DNA from: Escherichia phage vB_EcoM_KWBSE43-6
Sequence record: NC_048186.1
DNA: 64,000 nucleotides
Direction: 5' to 3' (one strand)
In this document: piece by piece, positions 10,098-17,345 of the stretch
How positions within the stretch are numbered: the first letter of the stretch is position 1
Layout of the letters: each line of letters opens with the position of its first letter
Position numbers and translations under genes: made by a program
The notes under the pieces: model-generated
Told to the model about the DNA's origin: nothing
Databases searched by the model: none
What the model saw: only the letters and a program-made list of their open reading frames with translations

Positions 10098-10323
10098 TTC
10101 TGAATATTTGCGTCGAGTTGTCTTGGAACTGGGCGTGAACTATAGCGGAATGGCCAGATTATTAGATTGTTCGAACGCAGTCGGATTCTGGAAGAAAGGT
10201 TATCGTCGGATACCCAAAGCATTCCGCCGGGCGATCTTGATGCTGAAATTTATCAATCAAAAAGGACTCATGTCTGAGTTCTTGAGATATGTGGGTGAAC
10301 AGGAGAAACAAAATGGTAACTGA
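10063..10323 (+). CDS. Putative helix-turn-helix DNA-binding protein
   Basis: Start re-picked at ATG 10063 (GGAGAG RBS); HTH-like GMARLLDCSNAVGFWKKG. Confidence 0.35.
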   Translation: MASNLKTLSENDSEYLRRVVLELGVNYSGMARLLDCSNAVGFWKKGYRRIPKAFRRAILMLKFINQKGLMSEFLRYVGEQEKQNGN

Positions 10324-10975
10324 ATGGGAAAAGATGGAATATGAACGGGCGTTTAACGTTTATTGTATCTTTATGGCCATCAAACTCCATTTCACGACCA
10401 AGGATTATGATTACGGCCTCTATGGCCCGATGAGCAATTACAAATTCGAAACATTCTTTGCCAAAGAAGGTATGCGGAAACAGTTTGCTCGATTGGCCCG
10501 GCGGTTTGAGACTTCTCAAGGCGAAGTTGTTGAGAATTATATCATTGCAAATTTCATAAAGTCCCCCAAGACCTGGGTGACCACATTGTTGACTCGGCAG
10601 GCACAAGAGAATTATAACGAATACCGGAAGCTGTATGACAACTTCACATACCACTTCCTTGACTTTTTTGAAAAGAATATGATTCCGGAAATTACCGGAC
10701 GCGGTCTCACGTTCTTGGATTATCTTAAAGGCGCCGGACAGAATCATCCGGCGCTATTGACCGATATCATTATGAAAAAATATCCGATTTGGTTTCTGGT
10801 CGGACTAAACAAAATAACCGGGTTCATCGCATTTTACGATAAATTGTTGGAAGAAGACATTTATTGGAATTCAGAAGCGTTCTTGCTGAAGAAGACTGAT
10901 GCGGTTGTCCCTAACGAGAATACCGATTACGCCAAAAATAAATTCCGTGAGATGATCCTTTCCCACGGAATTTGA
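10313..10975 (+). CDS. Putative helicase loader (T4 gp59-like)
   Basis: Start ATG 10313 with AGGAG RBS; N-terminal pattern MAIKLHFTTKDYDYGLY resembles the gp59 N-domain; weak. Confidence 0.35.
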   Translation: MVTEWEKMEYERAFNVYCIFMAIKLHFTTKDYDYGLYGPMSNYKFETFFAKEGMRKQFARLARRFETSQGEVVENYIIANFIKSPKTWVTTLLTRQAQENYNEYRKLYDNFTYHFLDFFEKNMIPEITGRGLTFLDYLKGAGQNHPALLTDIIMKKYPIWFLVGLNKITGFIAFYDKLLEEDIYWNSEAFLLKKTDAVVPNENTDYAKNKFREMILSHGI

Positions 10976-10977
10976 TA

Positions 10978-12921
10978 TTACCAATCCCAAAGAATACGGG
11001 ATTTATCAGTTTGGTTCGACGGTTCCAAATTCGTGCTGTTGAAATTGTTCGTCGTGTTGACCTTTTTGGAGTTATCGACATTCTGCTGAATAGGGGCTAT
11101 TACAGAAGTCGGCGGCTGGCTATACACCGATTGTATTTTACCGATGTTATCAGCCGCCCGGCCTTGCGTCGGTAATGCCCCTCCCAAAGTCCCACCACCG
11201 ATTGAGCCATAAGCATCTTTCAGCTGAGCATTACGGTCAGTTACATTAGCCGCATCAGACGTTACACCCTGAGGGATAGGCGTAAGTGTCTGAGCGTCTT
11301 GGTTCAGACCTTCAGTCGCAGGCTGCTGGTCGGATTGTGGAGCAGGAGAATTAGTTGGTTCTTCCGTTCCAATCATCATAGACTGACGGGCTTCTGCCAT
11401 TTTCTGTCTTGCTGTTTCGCCGCCCAATGCGTCAGGGATAATGCTGACAAATTTATCAACGATATCAAACATGGCATTGACGATGGCATTAATCATGTTG
11501 AAAAACGGCTTTTTGACATTCTCAGAGAATCCTTTCTTGATGCTGTCCAGCGTTTTACTCGCGGCTGCAATCCCGTCATCAATAAACGAACTGATACCAC
11601 CAGTGACCCAATCCACCAGTTTCATAAGTTCGCTCTGAAGATTGTCCGCCAGCTTACCGGGGATCTCAGTCAATGATGTGTTCCTGGTTATCCCACCAAA
11701 CAGATCATTAGATATCCAATCCATGATAGAGTTCAGCCATTGGGCAGGTTTCTCAGATATCCAGAGAGTAAACTGTCGGAACTTTTTACCCATGTCTGTG
11801 TCAAATCCGAATATTTTGGACACCCAATCGAATAGATCGCCAAAACTACCGACTAATTCTGTTATCCCAGCCCGCACCCGGTCTACAATGGTCACGGATG
11901 CTTTCCCTAAAATCTCTTTGGCGTTGATGAATCCTTTACCGAATTCAAATACAGAAGAGATTAATGCCAGCGGGCCGACCTTTAAGAATTTCAAAACTTT
12001 ACCGAACGGACCCAGGAGCTTAACGATCCCCTCTCCCATCTTAGAGAACATACCGATGAATGCACCCACAGCCCAACCGATTGCCTTGAAAGGTTTAAGG
12101 AGAAACCCTTTGAGGGCATTGAGGCCTAACATCGCTGCTATGGCAGCACCTATTCCGGATGAGTTCTCGTCTTTCTGGTCATCATCTTTAGGAATGATGG
12201 AAGTCGCCTGAGGAGTATGTTTCCCTTCTTTCCCTTCCTCGCCCCGGCGCATCTCTTCCTTTTCACGCCATTTCTCGTTGCTGTCGAAAATACGGACAAG
12301 AGCATTAACGATATGGCCACCAGTCTTGCCTATTTTCTTCTCAATGGAAGATAACCGGACCAGTTGTTCTGAAGAGTTCTTGTCGATACCTTCTGTATTC
12401 CATCTGACTTCGTCCAGAGTGTCACCAATACGATTTAAATCCGAACTGATGCCGACAAGAGTTCCTTCCTGATTGTCCAACCGCTTGAGGCTGTCATCAT
12501 TGGCTGCTTTCAACTGATCTGATATCAGGTTCAAATATTCAGTATTGGTATCATCAGCGGGCTGGCGGATAAGGTCCCCAAGACGGTCAACCTTCTCGCC
12601 GATTTTCATCAACTCTTCGTTACCATCAACAGCAACATCAACGGTATCTTTCATCCAAATACCATAATCTCGAGTGAATATTGGACTCACTCGAGCGAAG
12701 CCATTGACGAAGTCGTTGACCGAAGGAATTTTGAACTGAAATTCTGGAACATCTTTCTGCTTTTCGGCAGTCTGTAGTTTTTCCAGATTTTTGTTCATCT
12801 TCACCAGCTGCTTGTTGGTCTCATTTTGAGCGCGGAGTTGTTTCCTCTCCATGATCTCTTTCTTGATCTTGTCAAGAACTTGAGCAACTTCAGTCTGTGA
12901 TGTTTGTGCTGGCTCAGCCAT
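10978..12921 (-). CDS. Virion structural protein, tape-measure-like (gp29-like)
   Basis: 647 aa, coiled-coil N-terminus, Gly-rich C-terminal region; sits in baseplate/tail block. Confidence 0.3.
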   Translation of the reverse strand: MAEPAQTSQTEVAQVLDKIKKEIMERKQLRAQNETNKQLVKMNKNLEKLQTAEKQKDVPEFQFKIPSVNDFVNGFARVSPIFTRDYGIWMKDTVDVAVDGNEELMKIGEKVDRLGDLIRQPADDTNTEYLNLISDQLKAANDDSLKRLDNQEGTLVGISSDLNRIGDTLDEVRWNTEGIDKNSSEQLVRLSSIEKKIGKTGGHIVNALVRIFDSNEKWREKEEMRRGEEGKEGKHTPQATSIIPKDDDQKDENSSGIGAAIAAMLGLNALKGFLLKPFKAIGWAVGAFIGMFSKMGEGIVKLLGPFGKVLKFLKVGPLALISSVFEFGKGFINAKEILGKASVTIVDRVRAGITELVGSFGDLFDWVSKIFGFDTDMGKKFRQFTLWISEKPAQWLNSIMDWISNDLFGGITRNTSLTEIPGKLADNLQSELMKLVDWVTGGISSFIDDGIAAASKTLDSIKKGFSENVKKPFFNMINAIVNAMFDIVDKFVSIIPDALGGETARQKMAEARQSMMIGTEEPTNSPAPQSDQQPATEGLNQDAQTLTPIPQGVTSDAANVTDRNAQLKDAYGSIGGGTLGGALPTQGRAADNIGKIQSVYSQPPTSVIAPIQQNVDNSKKVNTTNNFNSTNLEPSNQTDKSRILWDW

Positions 12922-12931
12922 GGCTCACCTC

Positions 12932-14320
12932 TTACACCTTCTGTGATTGTCCTTTGTCAACAGGGACTGGCGTCGGTTGAGATGCAACAGCCTGATTTGT
13001 CTGAGGAGGCAGAACCTTCTCAATCATGCTGTCTTTAGCGATCTCAGCAACACATTGATAATCGTTAGTCAGGCGTGAAATTTTATGACGAATTTTCGTT
13101 ATGATATAATGGCCTGATGATAACTTACTTAACTCGGCCAGGTTTTCATTTTGTTTCGGTCTGTTTGACAGATCTTCGATATAATACACCTGACCAACAT
13201 TCAGACGATTGTCACCAACCAAAAGCAAACGCATGACCGTAGATGCCAGACTGAATTTGATGACACGTTTTGCATAATCCACCTGCTCAGCACCATCTGG
13301 TTGCGCTTCAAGATAACGAACGTTCTCACGATTAAATTCGTCAGAGAATAACGGGTATGGATCCAGATGCGCTGTGTCAGCAAACCATTCGGTGTACACA
13401 CGAGAAGTAGGCGTAACCGTTTTGGTTCTGAAATCATACACCCTTTCGTCTACAGCCAGGACATCATGATAATTCGCCATGAATTGGTCACGGGCCAATT
13501 TCTTTTCCGCTTTGATTATCGTCCTCATGAAACGCTCAGAGTTGAAGTTGTTGTTTTGCAGCAACGGGGCGTCCTGTGGATCACGGAAGAATTTCTTTTC
13601 AAGAGCGGCTTCTTGTTTTTCTTCAGCCGTCATAGTCTGATCACCTTGGTTGAACAAAGTAGTCAGACTTTTGAAATGATATCCTGTGAAATCTTCGTAG
13701 AAAACAAAGGGCATGAATATTTCATCATAAGACCGCCGGGCCATGTAATCAATGCTCTTGAGTACAGGCCAAAGCGGTGTCGCGAATCGTTCTTGGATAC
13801 CATAAGTTGGATCTATGTCTTCAAATTTAGTGCGCGATTCGAGCATTTCAAATATCTTTGCCGCCATATCGGAATATGACCCTTGGAGACCAACCGATTT
13901 ACGCAGCATGCTATCTTTATATGCATCAGTAGTGACCAGGTGCAGCCAGAACGCTTTCTTGGCTGAAGAATTTGACTCATCAGCAACACGCCCAACCCGG
14001 CTGACCCGGAACGATAATGCGGTGTAATCTGTAGCCGCCGGGGATTTAAATGAAATCACGACTTCTTCTCCACCAAGGATAGGCATCGTGTCCAGAATAT
14101 CCCAGCCTTCTTTGATCAACACATTGGCTGTCAATGATGGTGAAACATTCTCTTCCAAACCCAAATCTTGATATATATTGAATTCTTGGAATAATGAAGT
14201 CAGATCATATGGCGTTGGGGTTCCTCCTTCCGGTGTATGAGGAAGGATGGCCATATATTTCAAATCAAACGTCGTGGACGGGGTTAAAATACCGTCTTGT
14301 GACTCTTTGTTCTCAATCAT
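12932..14320 (-). CDS. Putative baseplate hub-like structural protein
   Basis: 462 aa; context only. Confidence 0.25.
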   Translation of the reverse strand: MIENKESQDGILTPSTTFDLKYMAILPHTPEGGTPTPYDLTSLFQEFNIYQDLGLEENVSPSLTANVLIKEGWDILDTMPILGGEEVVISFKSPAATDYTALSFRVSRVGRVADESNSSAKKAFWLHLVTTDAYKDSMLRKSVGLQGSYSDMAAKIFEMLESRTKFEDIDPTYGIQERFATPLWPVLKSIDYMARRSYDEIFMPFVFYEDFTGYHFKSLTTLFNQGDQTMTAEEKQEAALEKKFFRDPQDAPLLQNNNFNSERFMRTIIKAEKKLARDQFMANYHDVLAVDERVYDFRTKTVTPTSRVYTEWFADTAHLDPYPLFSDEFNRENVRYLEAQPDGAEQVDYAKRVIKFSLASTVMRLLLVGDNRLNVGQVYYIEDLSNRPKQNENLAELSKLSSGHYIITKIRHKISRLTNDYQCVAEIAKDSMIEKVLPPQTNQAVASQPTPVPVDKGQSQKV

Positions 14321-14874
14321 TTACTCAGCTCCTGTTCCAGCTGGCTGACAAACATGGAAACATAATCAGGATCAAGGACTTGAATTGCACGTTTCGCCTG
14401 GTTTTTGTTGATGGCATCATCGTGGTATGATATCCCGGTCAAACCATAATTTGCAATGATTTGGGAATCATCCATACCGTCCAGACCGTAAGCCATACGG
14501 ATAGCTCTGGCATCTGTTTCATGCCCAAACTGATCTACATAGTATTTGATATCCCACATACCATCCAAACCGTATTGAGCGATCAATTCTTCAACGATCC
14601 GTTGTTCTGGTTTTGGCCAGTCGTTATTGATATCCATTATGCTGTTGATCATACATGGTATCCAAAACAGCTCGAAGGAGCCATAGACACGCTCTGCAAA
14701 GGACCTTGGGGTTTCCCCATCATAAATGTTATACGGCAGGAGAAGCCCTTCGATGTCCTTAATCTTCTGTATAATCATCACACGGTGCGATAGGTTCTGC
14801 AATAGAACCTGATCATCCTGCTGACAATCAATTAGCTGATGCCAGACGAGGGGGAATTTCTCAAAGAATTTCAT
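14317..14874 (-). CDS. Hypothetical protein with YGLxG repeats
   Basis: Three repeats AQYGLDGMWD / MAYGLDGMDD / ANYGLTGIS. Confidence 0.4.
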   Translation of the reverse strand: MKFFEKFPLVWHQLIDCQQDDQVLLQNLSHRVMIIQKIKDIEGLLLPYNIYDGETPRSFAERVYGSFELFWIPCMINSIMDINNDWPKPEQRIVEELIAQYGLDGMWDIKYYVDQFGHETDARAIRMAYGLDGMDDSQIIANYGLTGISYHDDAINKNQAKRAIQVLDPDYVSMFVSQLEQELSK

Positions 14875-14888
14875 AATCGTCTCCTGGA

Positions 14889-15857
14889 TTAGAAGCTGTC
14901 GCCTTCGGTATCAAAGCGGCCTTTGTGCAGAGGTTCCAGTTCGATAAATGTCATGTCAATTTGGGTAGACACAATGCTATCATCTTTGTGGACTGCATAC
15001 GACGAATCCGGGGTTTCGTTGACGAACATGTTTGACAGAACGCATGTCGAAATCCGGTGCAACCATTTGTTGCGTTCACCTTGCACCATGAATGTAATAT
15101 CAAATGTCGACGGGTGCAGGTAAAACGCGCTGGAGTTCTTGTTGTATTTGTATTCAGGATACATATGCATCTTGAACAGACGAATGATCTCCCTGACCAT
15201 TTTGGCTTCTTTCTGGGAGCGCGGCGTGAATTTGAAAGTGAATGGGATTTCACGGTTTCGCACTCCCTGGAAGATCATTTCCACGTATGGATTCGTCATA
15301 GTGCCGGTGAACAACTCCAGAGTGTCATGAGCGTTAATCGTCGGCAGGAACGGGATAGACTCTGAAGCCGATTGGATAGCCTTCGTCGCCGCAAACCGAC
15401 CCATTTCCTTACCAACATTGAGAGCATCACCAAGTTTGAACTGGCTCATATCCTGGGCAGCGCGGGAAAGGAATTGGGCACCCATACCAGCGAGACCCAA
15501 CTCAGAGCCGTTCCAGCCAACACCATAGTTGGTAGTGATGGATTCGGGCATACACAGGACAATGGACTCGTTAGAACGCACGTGACGCGCCCAGGCATAT
15601 TTGCTGATGGACCCTGATTTGGTACCATACACAACAGGGGTATTACCCAGCGGGTTCTGGATAGGGTTCTGAACCGTCTGTGTTGCGGTGCTTCCATAAG
15701 AAGAACCAGAGATCCTGTTGATGTTGAACAGAACATAATGGCCAAGGGTTTTACCCCCGGTGATATCCAGCGGATAGACCAATTGTTTCTGGGCCTGTGT
15801 CAAGCCTTTGGTGTTCAGAACTTTGATCTTATCCAGGGTAGACTTGAAATTCGCCAT
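14889..15857 (-). CDS. Putative baseplate/tail-tube family protein (gp48/gp54-like)
   Basis: 322 aa, divergent from gp4; size and context only. Confidence 0.3.
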   Translation of the reverse strand: MANFKSTLDKIKVLNTKGLTQAQKQLVYPLDITGGKTLGHYVLFNINRISGSSYGSTATQTVQNPIQNPLGNTPVVYGTKSGSISKYAWARHVRSNESIVLCMPESITTNYGVGWNGSELGLAGMGAQFLSRAAQDMSQFKLGDALNVGKEMGRFAATKAIQSASESIPFLPTINAHDTLELFTGTMTNPYVEMIFQGVRNREIPFTFKFTPRSQKEAKMVREIIRLFKMHMYPEYKYNKNSSAFYLHPSTFDITFMVQGERNKWLHRISTCVLSNMFVNETPDSSYAVHKDDSIVSTQIDMTFIELEPLHKGRFDTEGDSF

Positions 15858-15910: not shown

Positions 15911-16528
15911 ATGGCTATGTATCTTCAGGGGAAATATGCCCCCGTAAATCCCAAGAAATACAAAGGTGACATTCATAAAATTGTTTTCCGGTCTTCTCTA
16001 GAACTGGTGGCATTCAAATTTTGTGATACAAACCCGGCTATTGTCTATTGGTCATCCGAAGAAACTGTCATCCCTTATATTTCACCAGTTGATGGTCGAC
16101 CGCATCGCTATTTCATGGATTTGAAAGTATGGACCAGATCAGCCAATAGTGAAGAACTCAAGATCACGTTGATCGAAATTAAACCTAAAGATCAGATTAA
16201 AGAACCGAAGAAAACGAAGACAATGAAGGAATCAACCTTCAATAATTCTATGCGGACTTATCTGGTCAATCAGGCTAAATGGACAGCAACCCGAGAGCAT
16301 TGTGCAAAGATGGGATGGTCATTTATTATCTGGACAGAAGAGCACCTCGTTCCTGGGGAAGATCCTGATGTCAAGAAGCAATTTGCTCTCAGATCTAAAA
16401 TGAAAAGAGAAAAGGACATGCAAGACAAACGCAGGGAAGAAAATATCAGAGCATTGAAAGAACAAATGAAAAAGACCATCAAAGCGAATGAACCAAAAGA
16501 ACGCGATGATGGCCTTTTGCTACCTTAA
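15911..16528 (+). CDS. 4: Head completion protein (T4 gp4-like)
   Basis: N-terminus MAMYLQGKYAPVNPKKYKGD...SPVDGRPHRYFMD closely resembles T4 gp4; Lys-rich C-terminal extension. Confidence 0.8.
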   Translation: MAMYLQGKYAPVNPKKYKGDIHKIVFRSSLELVAFKFCDTNPAIVYWSSEETVIPYISPVDGRPHRYFMDLKVWTRSANSEELKITLIEIKPKDQIKEPKKTKTMKESTFNNSMRTYLVNQAKWTATREHCAKMGWSFIIWTEEHLVPGEDPDVKKQFALRSKMKREKDMQDKRREENIRALKEQMKKTIKANEPKERDDGLLLP

Positions 16529-16731
16529 CGTTTCCAAATCTCTACGATATCGCCGGGAGCAAGCACAGCAGACTTACGGATCTCTTCCACTTGGTACGAT
16601 GCGTGCTCTCGGCTGATAGCATAGATGTAAAAAGACATAGTGCGACCATCTGCATCAATATAGTTCACGTCAAACAATCGCCACTCACGACCTTCAACCT
16701 GAACTGTTAATGGCATATTAATCCCACTCAT
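16525..16731 (-). CDS. Hypothetical protein
   Basis: 68-aa ORF in coupled minus-strand operon. Confidence 0.3.
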   Translation of the reverse strand: MSGINMPLTVQVEGREWRLFDVNYIDADGRTMSFYIYAISREHASYQVEEIRKSAVLAPGDIVEIWKR

Positions 16732-16734
16732 ACG

Positions 16735-16935
16735 TTAGCTCCTGTCATGGCCGGGGGCAATGCATTTTTGTTTGTCTCGACTGATATACCAACCATCCTT
16801 CCGGGCTTCTTTAGCACATTCAGCATATGTCTCGCCAGCGTATGTCCAAGGCTTGTTGGTCCCAAATACTGGAGTTGCGTTCTCACACGCATAACAGTCG
16901 CAATACAATTCTAAGGAATATCCGGAAACAACCAT
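16735..16935 (-). CDS. Small Cys-rich protein
   Basis: YCDCYACE ... CAKEARKDGWYISRDKQKC. Confidence 0.3.
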   Translation of the reverse strand: MVVSGYSLELYCDCYACENATPVFGTNKPWTYAGETYAECAKEARKDGWYISRDKQKCIAPGHDRS

Positions 16936-16937
16936 AA

Positions 16938-17345
16938 TCAGTTGTCCAGATGGTCGTAGATCACGCGACGGAAATCATTACCCTTGGCACACCCCTTGGC
17001 AACAAGACGAGTGCCGCCAGTACCAATGACGCTAATCGTTGAAAACCGCAGGACGCGCCCGGTGATGGACTGGTCGACCTTTACGGTTTCAACTTTACCC
17101 AAACGGAGTTCATCTGCATCACGACGGATAAACCCTGTTTTGAAGATAACGCGCTTGTTGGTGACGGCAAATTCAGTCGTCAGGTTCCGAATTACCGTAG
17201 GGATCAGGAAAAACAGGCTGATACCACAAGTCGGGACGAGGAATACAGCCACCCAGAAATAGACCCAAAATCCACTCCACCAGGTCGGGCGGGTAAAGCC
17301 AATCACGTGTTCGTTCTGGCCGAGCATACGATCTACATAACGCAT
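16938..17345 (-). CDS. Membrane protein
   Basis: Two hydrophobic helices near N-terminus followed by soluble domain. Confidence 0.4.
   Translation of the reverse strand: MRYVDRMLGQNEHVIGFTRPTWWSGFWVYFWVAVFLVPTCGISLFFLIPTVIRNLTTEFAVTNKRVIFKTGFIRRDADELRLGKVETVKVDQSITGRVLRFSTISVIGTGGTRLVAKGCAKGNDFRRVIYDHLDN

Follow-up and report, generated by a model that had tools for sequence, protein, structure and literature searches.

The analysis presented here indicates that the 185-aa protein encoded on the minus strand at positions 14317-14874 of the window (the whole 64,000-nucleotide stretch of Escherichia phage vB_EcoM_KWBSE43-6, NC_048186.1, that was analysed) is the gp53-type baseplate wedge subunit of the Taipeivirus (Ackermannviridae) type, whose three YGLxG motifs most likely act as helix-end packing elements. 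It is noted that the product is already known: its gene is one of the core structural genes that are annotated as a matter of routine in phages of the Ackermannviridae, and an identical protein in GenBank bears the name 'baseplate wedge subunit', so that the identification by itself matters little. The addition made here is purely descriptive, namely that the platform region of gp53 in this clade bears three helix-end YGL elements, one of which elaborates a Lys-Tyr-Gly found throughout the family.

Identity and fold of the gene product

As read from the sequence, the open reading frame starts with the ATG at 14872-14874 and stops with the TGA at 14317-14319, and a Shine-Dalgarno-like AGGAGA (14880-14885, minus strand) is located 5 nt upstream of the ATG, at the position equivalent to that of the ribosome-binding site annotated in Klebsiella phage Magnus. 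The sequence-only reading had described the product as a structural-block protein and had suggested HMM and structure-prediction searches as a check; both kinds of search bear out this description and sharpen it to a gp53-type baseplate wedge subunit. Pfam PF11246 (Phage_gp53) matches aa 46-118 with 33.5 bits (E 4.4e-8), above its gathering score of 21, and PHROG 232 'baseplate wedge subunit' matches aa 1-184 with an E value of 4.6e-56. In amino acid sequence the protein shows 100% identity to the annotated 'baseplate wedge subunit' of two Klebsiella phages, Bilbo and XDRKpn-1 (both Taipeivirus, Ackermannviridae); at the DNA level, the identity to Taipeivirus genomes, in which the gene carries the same annotation, is about 97%. 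A further Pfam match, to DUF6181 (aa 91-132), has an E value of 0.004 and scores 17.7 bits where 25 would be required, so that it is below threshold and was taken as chance. A scan of the protein and its three neighbours against NCBIfam gave no matches.

The AF2 model of the protein has a mean pLDDT of 81, with values of 87-93 over aa 40-180. In the Foldseek search against the PDB, the model matches the solved T4 gp53 (5iv5_BF) with an E value of 2.5e-9, a probability of 1.00 and TM scores of 0.65/0.63, while 5hx2_F is found with an E value of 1.1e-4. An equally strong fold match (9f4a_AG, E 2.9e-9) is to the baseplate wedge subunit of vB_Kpn_Lilla1, a variant of Klebsiella phage KP1 (9f4a/9f4b), which is also the best sequence match among solved structures, with a phmmer E value of 7e-9 over aa 44-185 as compared with 4e-3 for T4 gp53 (5hx2/5iv5). 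The Lilla1 protein differs from ours in having 212 aa and a T4-like motif region (KYADVGG, with no YGL triple) and in belonging to a different phage family.

Gene neighbourhood

The placement of the gene between baseplate-like genes, as had been claimed from the letters alone, proves right. Upstream of it on the minus strand is a gp48-type baseplate tail tube cap gene (14889-15857), the product of which matches Pfam T4_tail_cap with 22.2 bits against a cut-off of 20.2 and PHROG 230 with an E value of 5e-114, in agreement with the annotation of phage Magnus. Downstream is a hub-type tail protein gene (12932-14320, minus strand; PHROG 350 'tail protein', E 4.5e-99), which is annotated as 'putative baseplate hub subunit' in Dickeya phage XF4 and likewise in Vi01-like phages, and whose ATG overlaps the stop of the gp53-like gene by 4 nt (ATGA). 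The tail block of four genes ends with that for a tape-measure-like protein (10978-12921, minus strand), which is matched over its full length by PHROG 3799 and which carries the annotation 'tape measure protein' in XDRKpn-1, Menlow and vB_KpnM-20. Thus, from high to low coordinates, a gp4-type head closure gene on the opposite strand is followed by the minus-strand genes for the gp48-type cap, the gp53-like protein, the hub and the tape measure, so that the gene is located among tail and baseplate genes of a contractile-tailed phage. By analogy with T4, the platform domain would be expected to contact the gp48-type cap.

Orthologues in Ackermannviridae phages, including Magnus, Menlow, XDRKpn-1, Bilbo and Sajous1 (gp55), are 79-100% identical, with equal length, the same gene order and no substantial differences, and the annotated proteins in this range include the 'Gp53 baseplate wedge subunit' of Salmonella phage Vi01. 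In the Kuttervirus Sajous1, the syntenic gp55, named 'baseplate wedge subunit', was detected when CsCl-purified virions were analysed by LC-MS/MS, next to the tape measure protein gp53, the hub gp54 and the tube cap gp56 (PMC10892097). Based on the gene order, we infer that Sajous1 gp55 is the orthologue of the 185-aa protein, which would indirectly support a presence of the latter in the virion.

Comparison with T4 gp53 and related proteins

The 185-aa protein and T4 gp53 (196 aa; 5iv5, 5hx2; PF11246) have the same overall fold, both are encoded among tail and baseplate genes, and YG (64-65), W71, N77, W86, Y101 and Y112 stand at the same residue numbers in both. The phmmer alignment of the two is gapless over aa 47-120, and residue numbers are thus the same in both where the platform domain begins and at motif 1. 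The differences are also large. The identity is only 14-16% in the structural alignment and about 25% by tblastn to T4-like phages; T4 gp53 has KYKNVGG at motif 1 (K100-Y101) and is without YGL at sites 2 and 3, with the segment of motif 2 aligning to an unrelated T4 stretch. Moreover, gene 53 of T4 lies between genes 4 and 5, whereas the gene here lies between those for the gp48-type cap and the hub and tape measure.

Two regions of the protein can be distinguished. The first is a segment at aa 45-85 (14620-14742, minus strand) with the family-wide signature FAERVYGS...W...N, where Y64, G65, W71 and N77, and beyond its end W86, are conserved as far as distant homologues. A LysM-like module is common to T4 gp53, Pvc7, Afp7 and the pyocin R2 glue protein (PMC12546770), and by analogy with this literature on T4 gp53 the segment is probably LysM-like, Pfam LysM itself finding no match. 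Proteins of the Pvc7/Afp7/pyocin R2 glue type appear in Foldseek as weak, non-significant matches (7b5h_AK, 7aeb_M, 9gtp_M and 9qgl_7A, E 0.5 or worse), and they differ in that their LysM is fused to a tube initiator and that they are without a platform region with YGL motifs. The second region, aa 89-168 (14371-14610, minus strand), is the equivalent of the T4 gp53 platform domain according to the phmmer alignment, is modelled with a pLDDT of 87-93 and holds all three motifs.

Recurrence of the YGLxG motif

The three copies of YGL(D/T)G(M/I) that had been noticed are all present exactly as claimed. Motif 1, YGLDGM (aa 101-106; 14557-14574, minus strand), is in the last turn of the predicted helix 90-105; motif 2, YGLDGM (aa 129-134; 14473-14490, minus strand), begins at the final residue of the predicted helix 122-129; and motif 3, YGLTGI (aa 143-148; 14431-14448, minus strand), comes right after the predicted helix 136-142 and runs into the strand 146-149. 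The spacing between the motifs is 28 and 14 residues, and with an extra Phe-Gly at aa 116-117 the pattern [YF]G occurs at 101, 116, 129 and 143. The 18-mers that encode the motifs are identical at 16/18, 12/18 and 12/18 positions, the two lower values being those of copy 3 against the other copies. Copies 1 and 2 differ in their DNA at two positions, both of them synonymous, which means that the recurrence is at the level of the protein; a DNA-level repeat is ruled out by such synonymous differences.

It might be argued that a motif so short, with the exact triple present only in very close relatives, has recurred by chance and is without meaning. We consider this hardly credible, because no shuffle of the protein out of 200,000 contained at least two YGLxG and only one out of 200,000 contained at least three YGL, and because three of the four YGLxG in the open stretches of the window (stop-free, at least 100 aa, in all six frames, 30,912 aa in total) are in this one protein. 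Any word of the form xxx.x recurred three times in 6 of 20,000 shuffles. Moreover, YGL is kept at all three sites in homologues down to about 55-60% identity (P0021, for example). Based on the shuffling and on the conservation, we reject an origin in chance or composition.

Another possibility is that the Ackermannviridae lineage duplicated a helix-turn unit some 14 residues long, giving the copies at aa ~120-134 and 135-148, while the one at 92-106 would be older. The recurrence would in that case be a historical trace without a function of its own, which is compatible with the packing explanation. The regular 28 + 14 spacing together with the four [YF]G positions is in keeping with such an origin, as is the fact that the segment holding motifs 2 and 3 varies among the other members of the gp53 family or is missing from them. 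Furthermore, hhalign aligns the units over 12-14 columns with the flanking hydrophobic positions included, and when columns were shuffled, the profile-profile scores among the three units were equalled in 0/150, 0/150 and 2/150 cases. However, the likeness consists mostly of the YGL core and two hydrophobic positions, the hhalign probabilities are only 6-39%, the DNA of copy 3 has the low identity to the other copies given above, and the units are too short to separate duplication from convergence. We therefore hold the duplication as a tentative suggestion, somewhat improbable as it stands.

Conservation of the motifs across the gp53 family

The sequence-only reading would have been undone by a motif of chance composition that is not conserved in homologues, and on this point it stands in part: the YGL cores are kept in the Ackermannviridae-type homologues with an identity of 53% or more, while the full YGLxG triple does not extend beyond the closest relatives. 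Already in the 81%-identical Kuttervirus protein only two YGLxG are present, the exact form having been lost at site 2 in Kuttervirus proteins (YGLGSM). At motif 1, all of the 21 Ackermannviridae-type homologues fit [YF]Gx[DES][GM]M, with DGM in 17 of them. YGL is present at motif 2 in 14/21 and at motif 3 in 18/21 of the close homologues, the second Gly of motif 3 occurring in only 3/21 and being usually replaced by Ala or Pro. The replacements in the close relatives are conservative (YGI, YGM, FGL, YNL, YSL).

For the distant homologues, 116 cluster representatives were used, the counts at each site being among those ungapped there. Site 1 is aromatic in 104 of 105 representatives, and the next residue is Gly in 68 and small in 97 of the same 105. 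Site 2 is gapped in 55 of the 116, and in P0035-P0039 its segment is swapped for an insert of about 100 aa. At site 3, Leu is found in 49/112 and Gly in 33/112, and the third position is aliphatic in 62/112. None of the 116 representatives has aromatic-Gly-aliphatic at all three sites. Thus the Tyr-Gly of motif 1 is the sole part of the motifs that belongs to the wider gp53 family, and the segment between sites 1 and 3 is a hot spot of the family for deletions and large domain insertions.

By comparison, the signature of the gp53 family itself (YG...W...N...W followed by Y101) is found in the protein. In an alignment of 32 sequences, with members 22-28% identical included, W71, N77 and W86 are invariant and Y64, G65, Y101 and G102 nearly so, and of the 116 distant representatives, 115 have Y64 and 104 have Y101. 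Taken together, the recurrence of YGLxG is neither a chance event, nor a conserved signature of the family, nor a known repeat family.

Proposed role of the motifs

In T4, the platform domain (gp53 89-168) touches the gp48(7-32) anchor loop and the protomers of the first sheath ring (bioRxiv 10.64898/2026.03.06.709160), and gp53, of which a baseplate contains six copies, joins after gp6 and makes possible both the association of wedge with wedge and the binding of gp25 (PMC3004832). No structure of an Ackermannviridae baseplate was found in the searches of PDB sequences and folds or among the listed results of one targeted literature search, nor were assembly data for one found, and all the partner contacts described below are hence transferred from T4, where the identity is about 16-25%. 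By this analogy, six copies of the gp53-type protein per virion would bind the inner wedge (the gp6/gp7-type core and gp25) and would let the wedges close into a ring. The YGLxG motifs would then be structural helix-end or turn elements of the platform region, where the aromatic residue and the Leu would pack into a small hydrophobic core and the Gly would let the chain exit the helix. Motif 1 is an elaboration of the family-wide Lys-Tyr-Gly, and motifs 2 and 3, 14 residues apart, are in a lineage-specific two-helix insert and perhaps arose by a small internal duplication. It is most likely that the motifs are such helix-end packing elements and not a catalytic or ligand-binding repeat, and the graded conservation seen in the sequences is consistent with a packing role.

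It should be noted that the register of the motifs relative to the helix ends differs. The predicted helices end at residues 105, 129 and 142, i.e., the helix end is four residues past the Tyr in motif 1, at the Tyr in motif 2 and one residue before it in motif 3, which implies that the motifs are not three copies of one identical local structure. Motifs 2 and 3 are parts of a beta-alpha-alpha-beta sub-module at aa 106-152 (14419-14559, minus strand). When searched in isolation, this sub-module did not retrieve T4 gp53, and its structure may be different from that in T4.

The sub-module might also be thought to be a second, cryptic LysM-like module, with 'hhAxYG[LV]' as the signature of LysM helix 1, implying the binding of glycan or peptidoglycan. 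The YGLxG motif appears to resemble the LysM helix-1 consensus (IAkkYGv), and the sub-module has, in the predicted structure, the beta-alpha-alpha-beta order of elements of LysM. However, hhalign of aa 44-90 against aa 106-152 gives a probability of 0.1%, Pfam LysM (PF01476) has no match at E values up to 10, and the isolated sub-module finds no LysM in Foldseek, the best matches being crambin and viscotoxin with E values of 2.4 or worse. This reading, very improbable by our estimate, is rejected.

A different role would be that the motifs are lineage-specific contact residues instead of core packing ones, with the gp48-type anchor loop, the first sheath ring or an Ackermannviridae-specific baseplate or tailspike-adaptor protein as candidate partners. 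The motifs are indeed in the region equivalent to the platform, the T4 counterpart of which contacts gp48(7-32) and the sheath protomers, and motif 1 is almost invariant in the clade, more so than a simple turn needs, as its DGM count indicates. On the other hand, Tyr, Leu and Met/Ile are typical core residues, and in motifs 2 and 3 a good many substitutions are tolerated among members of the clade, so that we regard a contact role as unlikely. An even less probable, speculative version is that the platform region of gp53 in Ackermannviridae acquired hhAxYGLxGh, a helix-turn of some 14 residues present in two or three copies, as a docking surface peculiar to this lineage, with the gp48 anchor loop, the first sheath ring or an adaptor of the branched tailspike complex as examples of what might dock there. 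If it were true, the lock between baseplate and sheath in Ackermannviridae would be built otherwise than in T4.

The description of these helix-end elements and of the insertion hot spot may be of use in modelling Ackermannviridae baseplates and in picking insertion-tolerant sites in gp53-type proteins. Another possible use is in bio-contained phages with gp53 deleted, for which there is a precedent in a T4-like Salmonella phage (PMC10821221). The protein deleted there, SEA1 gp141, has 191 aa and is 83% similar to T4 gp53; it is thus T4-like and non-orthologous, and we do not take it as evidence of essentiality in Ackermannviridae. Finally, the 'gp53' of XM1 is a capsid decoration protein and is irrelevant to the baseplate gp53.

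Identity of the gene and its neighbours

The ORF at 14317-14874 on the minus strand, with its ATG at 14872-14874, encodes a protein of 185 aa; AGGAGA, as read from the sequence, lies upstream of the ATG at 14880-14885 (minus), and the ATG of the next gene overlaps the TGA stop in the ATGA at 14317-14320. The protein, which the sequence-only reading had placed in the structural block with the suggestion of HMM and structure-prediction searches, is a gp53-type baseplate wedge subunit: it is matched by Pfam PF11246 (Phage_gp53, 'Base plate wedge protein 53') with 33.5 bits versus a gathering score of 21, it is matched over its full length by PHROG 232 'baseplate wedge subunit' (E 4.6e-56), and its AlphaFold2 model lands on T4 gp53 in Foldseek, as discussed below. 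Klebsiella phages XDRKpn-1 and vB_KqM-Bilbo carry a 100% identical protein under the name 'baseplate wedge subunit', and in Kuttervirus the proteins, Vi01 'Gp53 baseplate wedge subunit' among them, are 79-81% identical. The 5 kb around the gene have about 97% DNA identity with Taipeivirus (Ackermannviridae) genomes such as Magnus, Menlow and UPM 2146, with the gene annotated in Magnus as 'baseplate wedge subunit, InterPro IPR022607'. The protein is an ordinary and previously annotated one, and what had been observed on it is correct.

The gene indeed lies between baseplate-like genes, being flanked by those of a gp48-type tail tube cap (14889-15857, minus) and a hub-type tail protein (12932-14320, minus), with that of a tape-measure-like protein (10978-12921, minus) and, on the opposite strand, that of a gp4-type head closure protein (15911-16528, plus) as further neighbours. 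Vi01-like phages show this order too within their conserved core genes: head completion is followed by tail tube cap, wedge subunit and hub subunit, then by tape measure, helicase loader and ligase (PMC10892097). In CsCl-purified virions of Sajous1, the 'baseplate wedge subunit' gp55 was found by LC-MS/MS alongside the tape measure (gp53), the hub (gp54) and the tube cap (gp56) (PMC10892097). From the synteny and about 80% identity we infer that Sajous1 gp55 is orthologous to the 185-aa protein, and with this orthology the virion proteomics that had been proposed is largely supplied by those data.

The three YGLxG motifs

The three copies of YGL(D/T)G(M/I) are present exactly as had been described: motif 1, YGLDGM, at aa 101-106 (14557-14574), motif 2, YGLDGM, at aa 129-134 (14473-14490), and motif 3, YGLTGI, at aa 143-148 (14431-14448), all on the minus strand. 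They far exceed the expectation from composition, with two or more YGLxG occurring in 0 of 200,000 shuffles of the protein and, allowing for the look-elsewhere effect, any xxx.x word occurring three times in 6 of 20,000. In the window's open stretches of at least 100 aa (six frames, 30,912 aa) YGLxG occurs four times in total, three of them in this protein. The fourth, at 10412-10426 (plus; DYDYGLYGPMS), is within a gp59-type helicase loader ORF (10289-10975) and is probably there by chance. The 18-mers coding for the motifs are identical at 16/18, 12/18 and 12/18 positions and differ at synonymous sites, so the recurrence is at the protein level and a DNA repeat as the source of the motifs is ruled out.

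Profile-profile alignment (hhalign) of the three motif segments, with profiles from an alignment of 21 sequences, pairs them over 12-14 columns as (D/E)x-h-h-A-x-Y-G-L-x-G-h. Column-shuffled controls reached the pair scores in 0/150, 0/150 and 2/150 cases, and the hhalign probabilities between segments are just 6-39%. The motifs are spaced by 28 and 14 residues, and with the Phe-Gly at 116-117 there is [YF]G at 101, 116, 129 and 143. Since the pair scores beat the shuffles and the spacing has this extra Phe-Gly, it is plausible that a helix-turn unit underwent a small internal duplication, above all in the variable segment that carries motifs 2 and 3; units of this length do not distinguish duplication from convergence.

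Conservation across the gp53 family

In all 21 close, Ackermannviridae-type homologues (at least 53% identical) the motif 1 site reads [YF]Gx[DES][GM]M, with YG[LIMV]DGM in 16. YGL is present in 14/21 at site 2 (variants YDL, YNL, FNL and HND) and in 18/21 at site 3, where the second Gly is kept in just 3/21 and is usually replaced by Ala or Pro. When 1.84 billion cluster representatives were searched with a profile, 2,913 family members were found at E <=0.001, and a distant set of 116 representatives of 160-215 aa was aligned. There, site 1 is ungapped in 105, with the first position aromatic in 104/105, followed by Gly in 68/105 and Leu in 9/105; site 2 is gapped in 55/116; site 3 is ungapped in 112, with Leu in 49/112 and Gly in 33/112. 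None of the 116 has aromatic-Gly-aliphatic at all three sites. T4 gp53 has K100-Y101 at the position of motif 1.

These counts thus separate successively wider levels: the exact triple is a trait of Taipeivirus and the phages nearest to it, the YGL cores are one of the wider Ackermannviridae-type clade, and only the Lys-Tyr-Gly of motif 1 is one of the entire gp53 family. The refuting case that had been named is a motif that is a chance feature of composition not conserved in homologues; the part on chance is contradicted by the shuffles, and that on conservation stands for the exact triple and not for the YGL cores within the Ackermannviridae-type clade.

It is also observed that the segment between motifs 1 and 3 is an insertion hot spot of the family. 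It is deleted in shorter members, and many members of 230-495 aa have inserts of about 100 to 300 residues there, while ~100 residues at the N-terminus and ~40 at the C-terminus remain aligned. The longer members P0035-P0039 (236-298 aa) have a ~100-residue insert in place of the motif 2 segment, and in many representatives, up to 495 aa long, the match is split in two at about position 100-120. Pfam DUF6181 gives a weak match to aa 91-132, spanning motif 1 and the first residues of motif 2 (17.7 bits, E 0.004, with the full protein; 19.3 bits, E 0.0012, with the C-terminal 100 aa); both scores are below the 25-bit cut-off and the match is treated as chance.

Structure and proposed role

Among solved structures, phmmer retrieved 9f4a, the Klebsiella phage Lilla1 baseplate wedge subunit (E 7e-9), and T4 gp53 (5hx2/5iv5, E 4e-3). 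The AlphaFold2 model, built from 32 homologues, has a mean pLDDT of 81 (87-93 over aa 40-180), and Foldseek with it gave significant matches only to T4 gp53 as solved within the hexagonal baseplate (5iv5_BF, E 2.5e-9, TM 0.65) and to 9f4a_AG (E 2.9e-9). No Ackermannviridae baseplate structure came from the PDB sequence and fold searches or from the results listed for one targeted literature search.

The model has helices at 90-105, 122-129, 136-142, 150-160 and 169-184 and strands at 109-113, 146-149 and 163-167. Motif 1 is the last turn of predicted helix 90-105, motif 2 starts at the final residue of helix 122-129, and motif 3 directly follows helix 136-142 and leads into strand 146-149. All three are therefore predicted helix-end elements, with a register relative to the helix ends that is not identical. 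Because the phmmer alignment to T4 gp53 is ungapped over aa 47-120, the residue numbering coincides over this stretch and motif 1, and thus the motifs lie within the equivalent of the T4 platform domain, residues 89-168 (bioRxiv 10.64898/2026.03.06.709160).

The sub-module at aa 106-152, carrying motifs 2 and 3, has the beta-alpha-alpha-beta order of LysM, and 'hhAxYG[LV]' resembles the LysM helix-1 signature; on these grounds a second, cryptic LysM module was considered. It is rejected: hhalign assigned a probability of 0.1% to its alignment with the LysM-like segment of the protein itself, Pfam gave no LysM match at E up to 10, and Foldseek with the isolated AlphaFold2 model, confidently beta-alpha-alpha-beta (pLDDT 85.9), found no LysM, the best matches, crambin and viscotoxin, having E values of 2.4 or worse. 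That search did not retrieve T4 gp53 either, and the structure here may be a clade-specific part of the platform, or the sub-module may just be too small as a query.

T4 gp53, present in six copies per baseplate, binds after gp6, is required for gp25 binding and triggers the association of six wedges (PMC3004832). It carries a LysM-like module (PMC12546770), and sheath protomers engage it once the baseplate has expanded (bioRxiv 10.64898/2026.03.06.709160). A mechanism of this type is the best-supported one for the 185-aa protein, which would, as in T4, be a six-copy inner-baseplate clamp, with its platform contacting, by analogy, the anchor loop of the tube cap and the first ring of the sheath. 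Within the platform, the YGLxG motifs would be helix-end packing elements, their side chains presumably buried. That they instead form a lineage-specific docking surface is improbable, and would be of modest interest if true.

Other observations in the neighbourhood

The gp4-type head closure protein (15911-16528, plus; PHROG 218, E 1.4e-57) is also matched above cut-off by PF08722, the TnsA-like endonuclease N-terminal domain (E 5.7e-18), which gives this virion head-completion protein a nuclease-like fold. Between the tail genes and dCMP deaminase, at 16938-17345 (minus), a 135-aa protein is encoded that Magnus has annotated as 'membrane-flanked domain'. About 217 bp at 16530-16746 have no counterpart in Klebsiella phage Magnus, with the flanks aligning at 97.6% and 89.8% identity, and all 15 of the 15 listed megablast matches share the pattern of 96% covered in 2 pieces. 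This segment holds an extra ORF of 68 aa at 16525-16731 (minus; MSGINMPLTVQVEGREWRLFDVNYIDADGRTMSF...), with the head-closure gene on one side and a 66-aa ORF on the other; the extra ORF is a candidate for a small accessory gene peculiar to phage KWBSE43-6.
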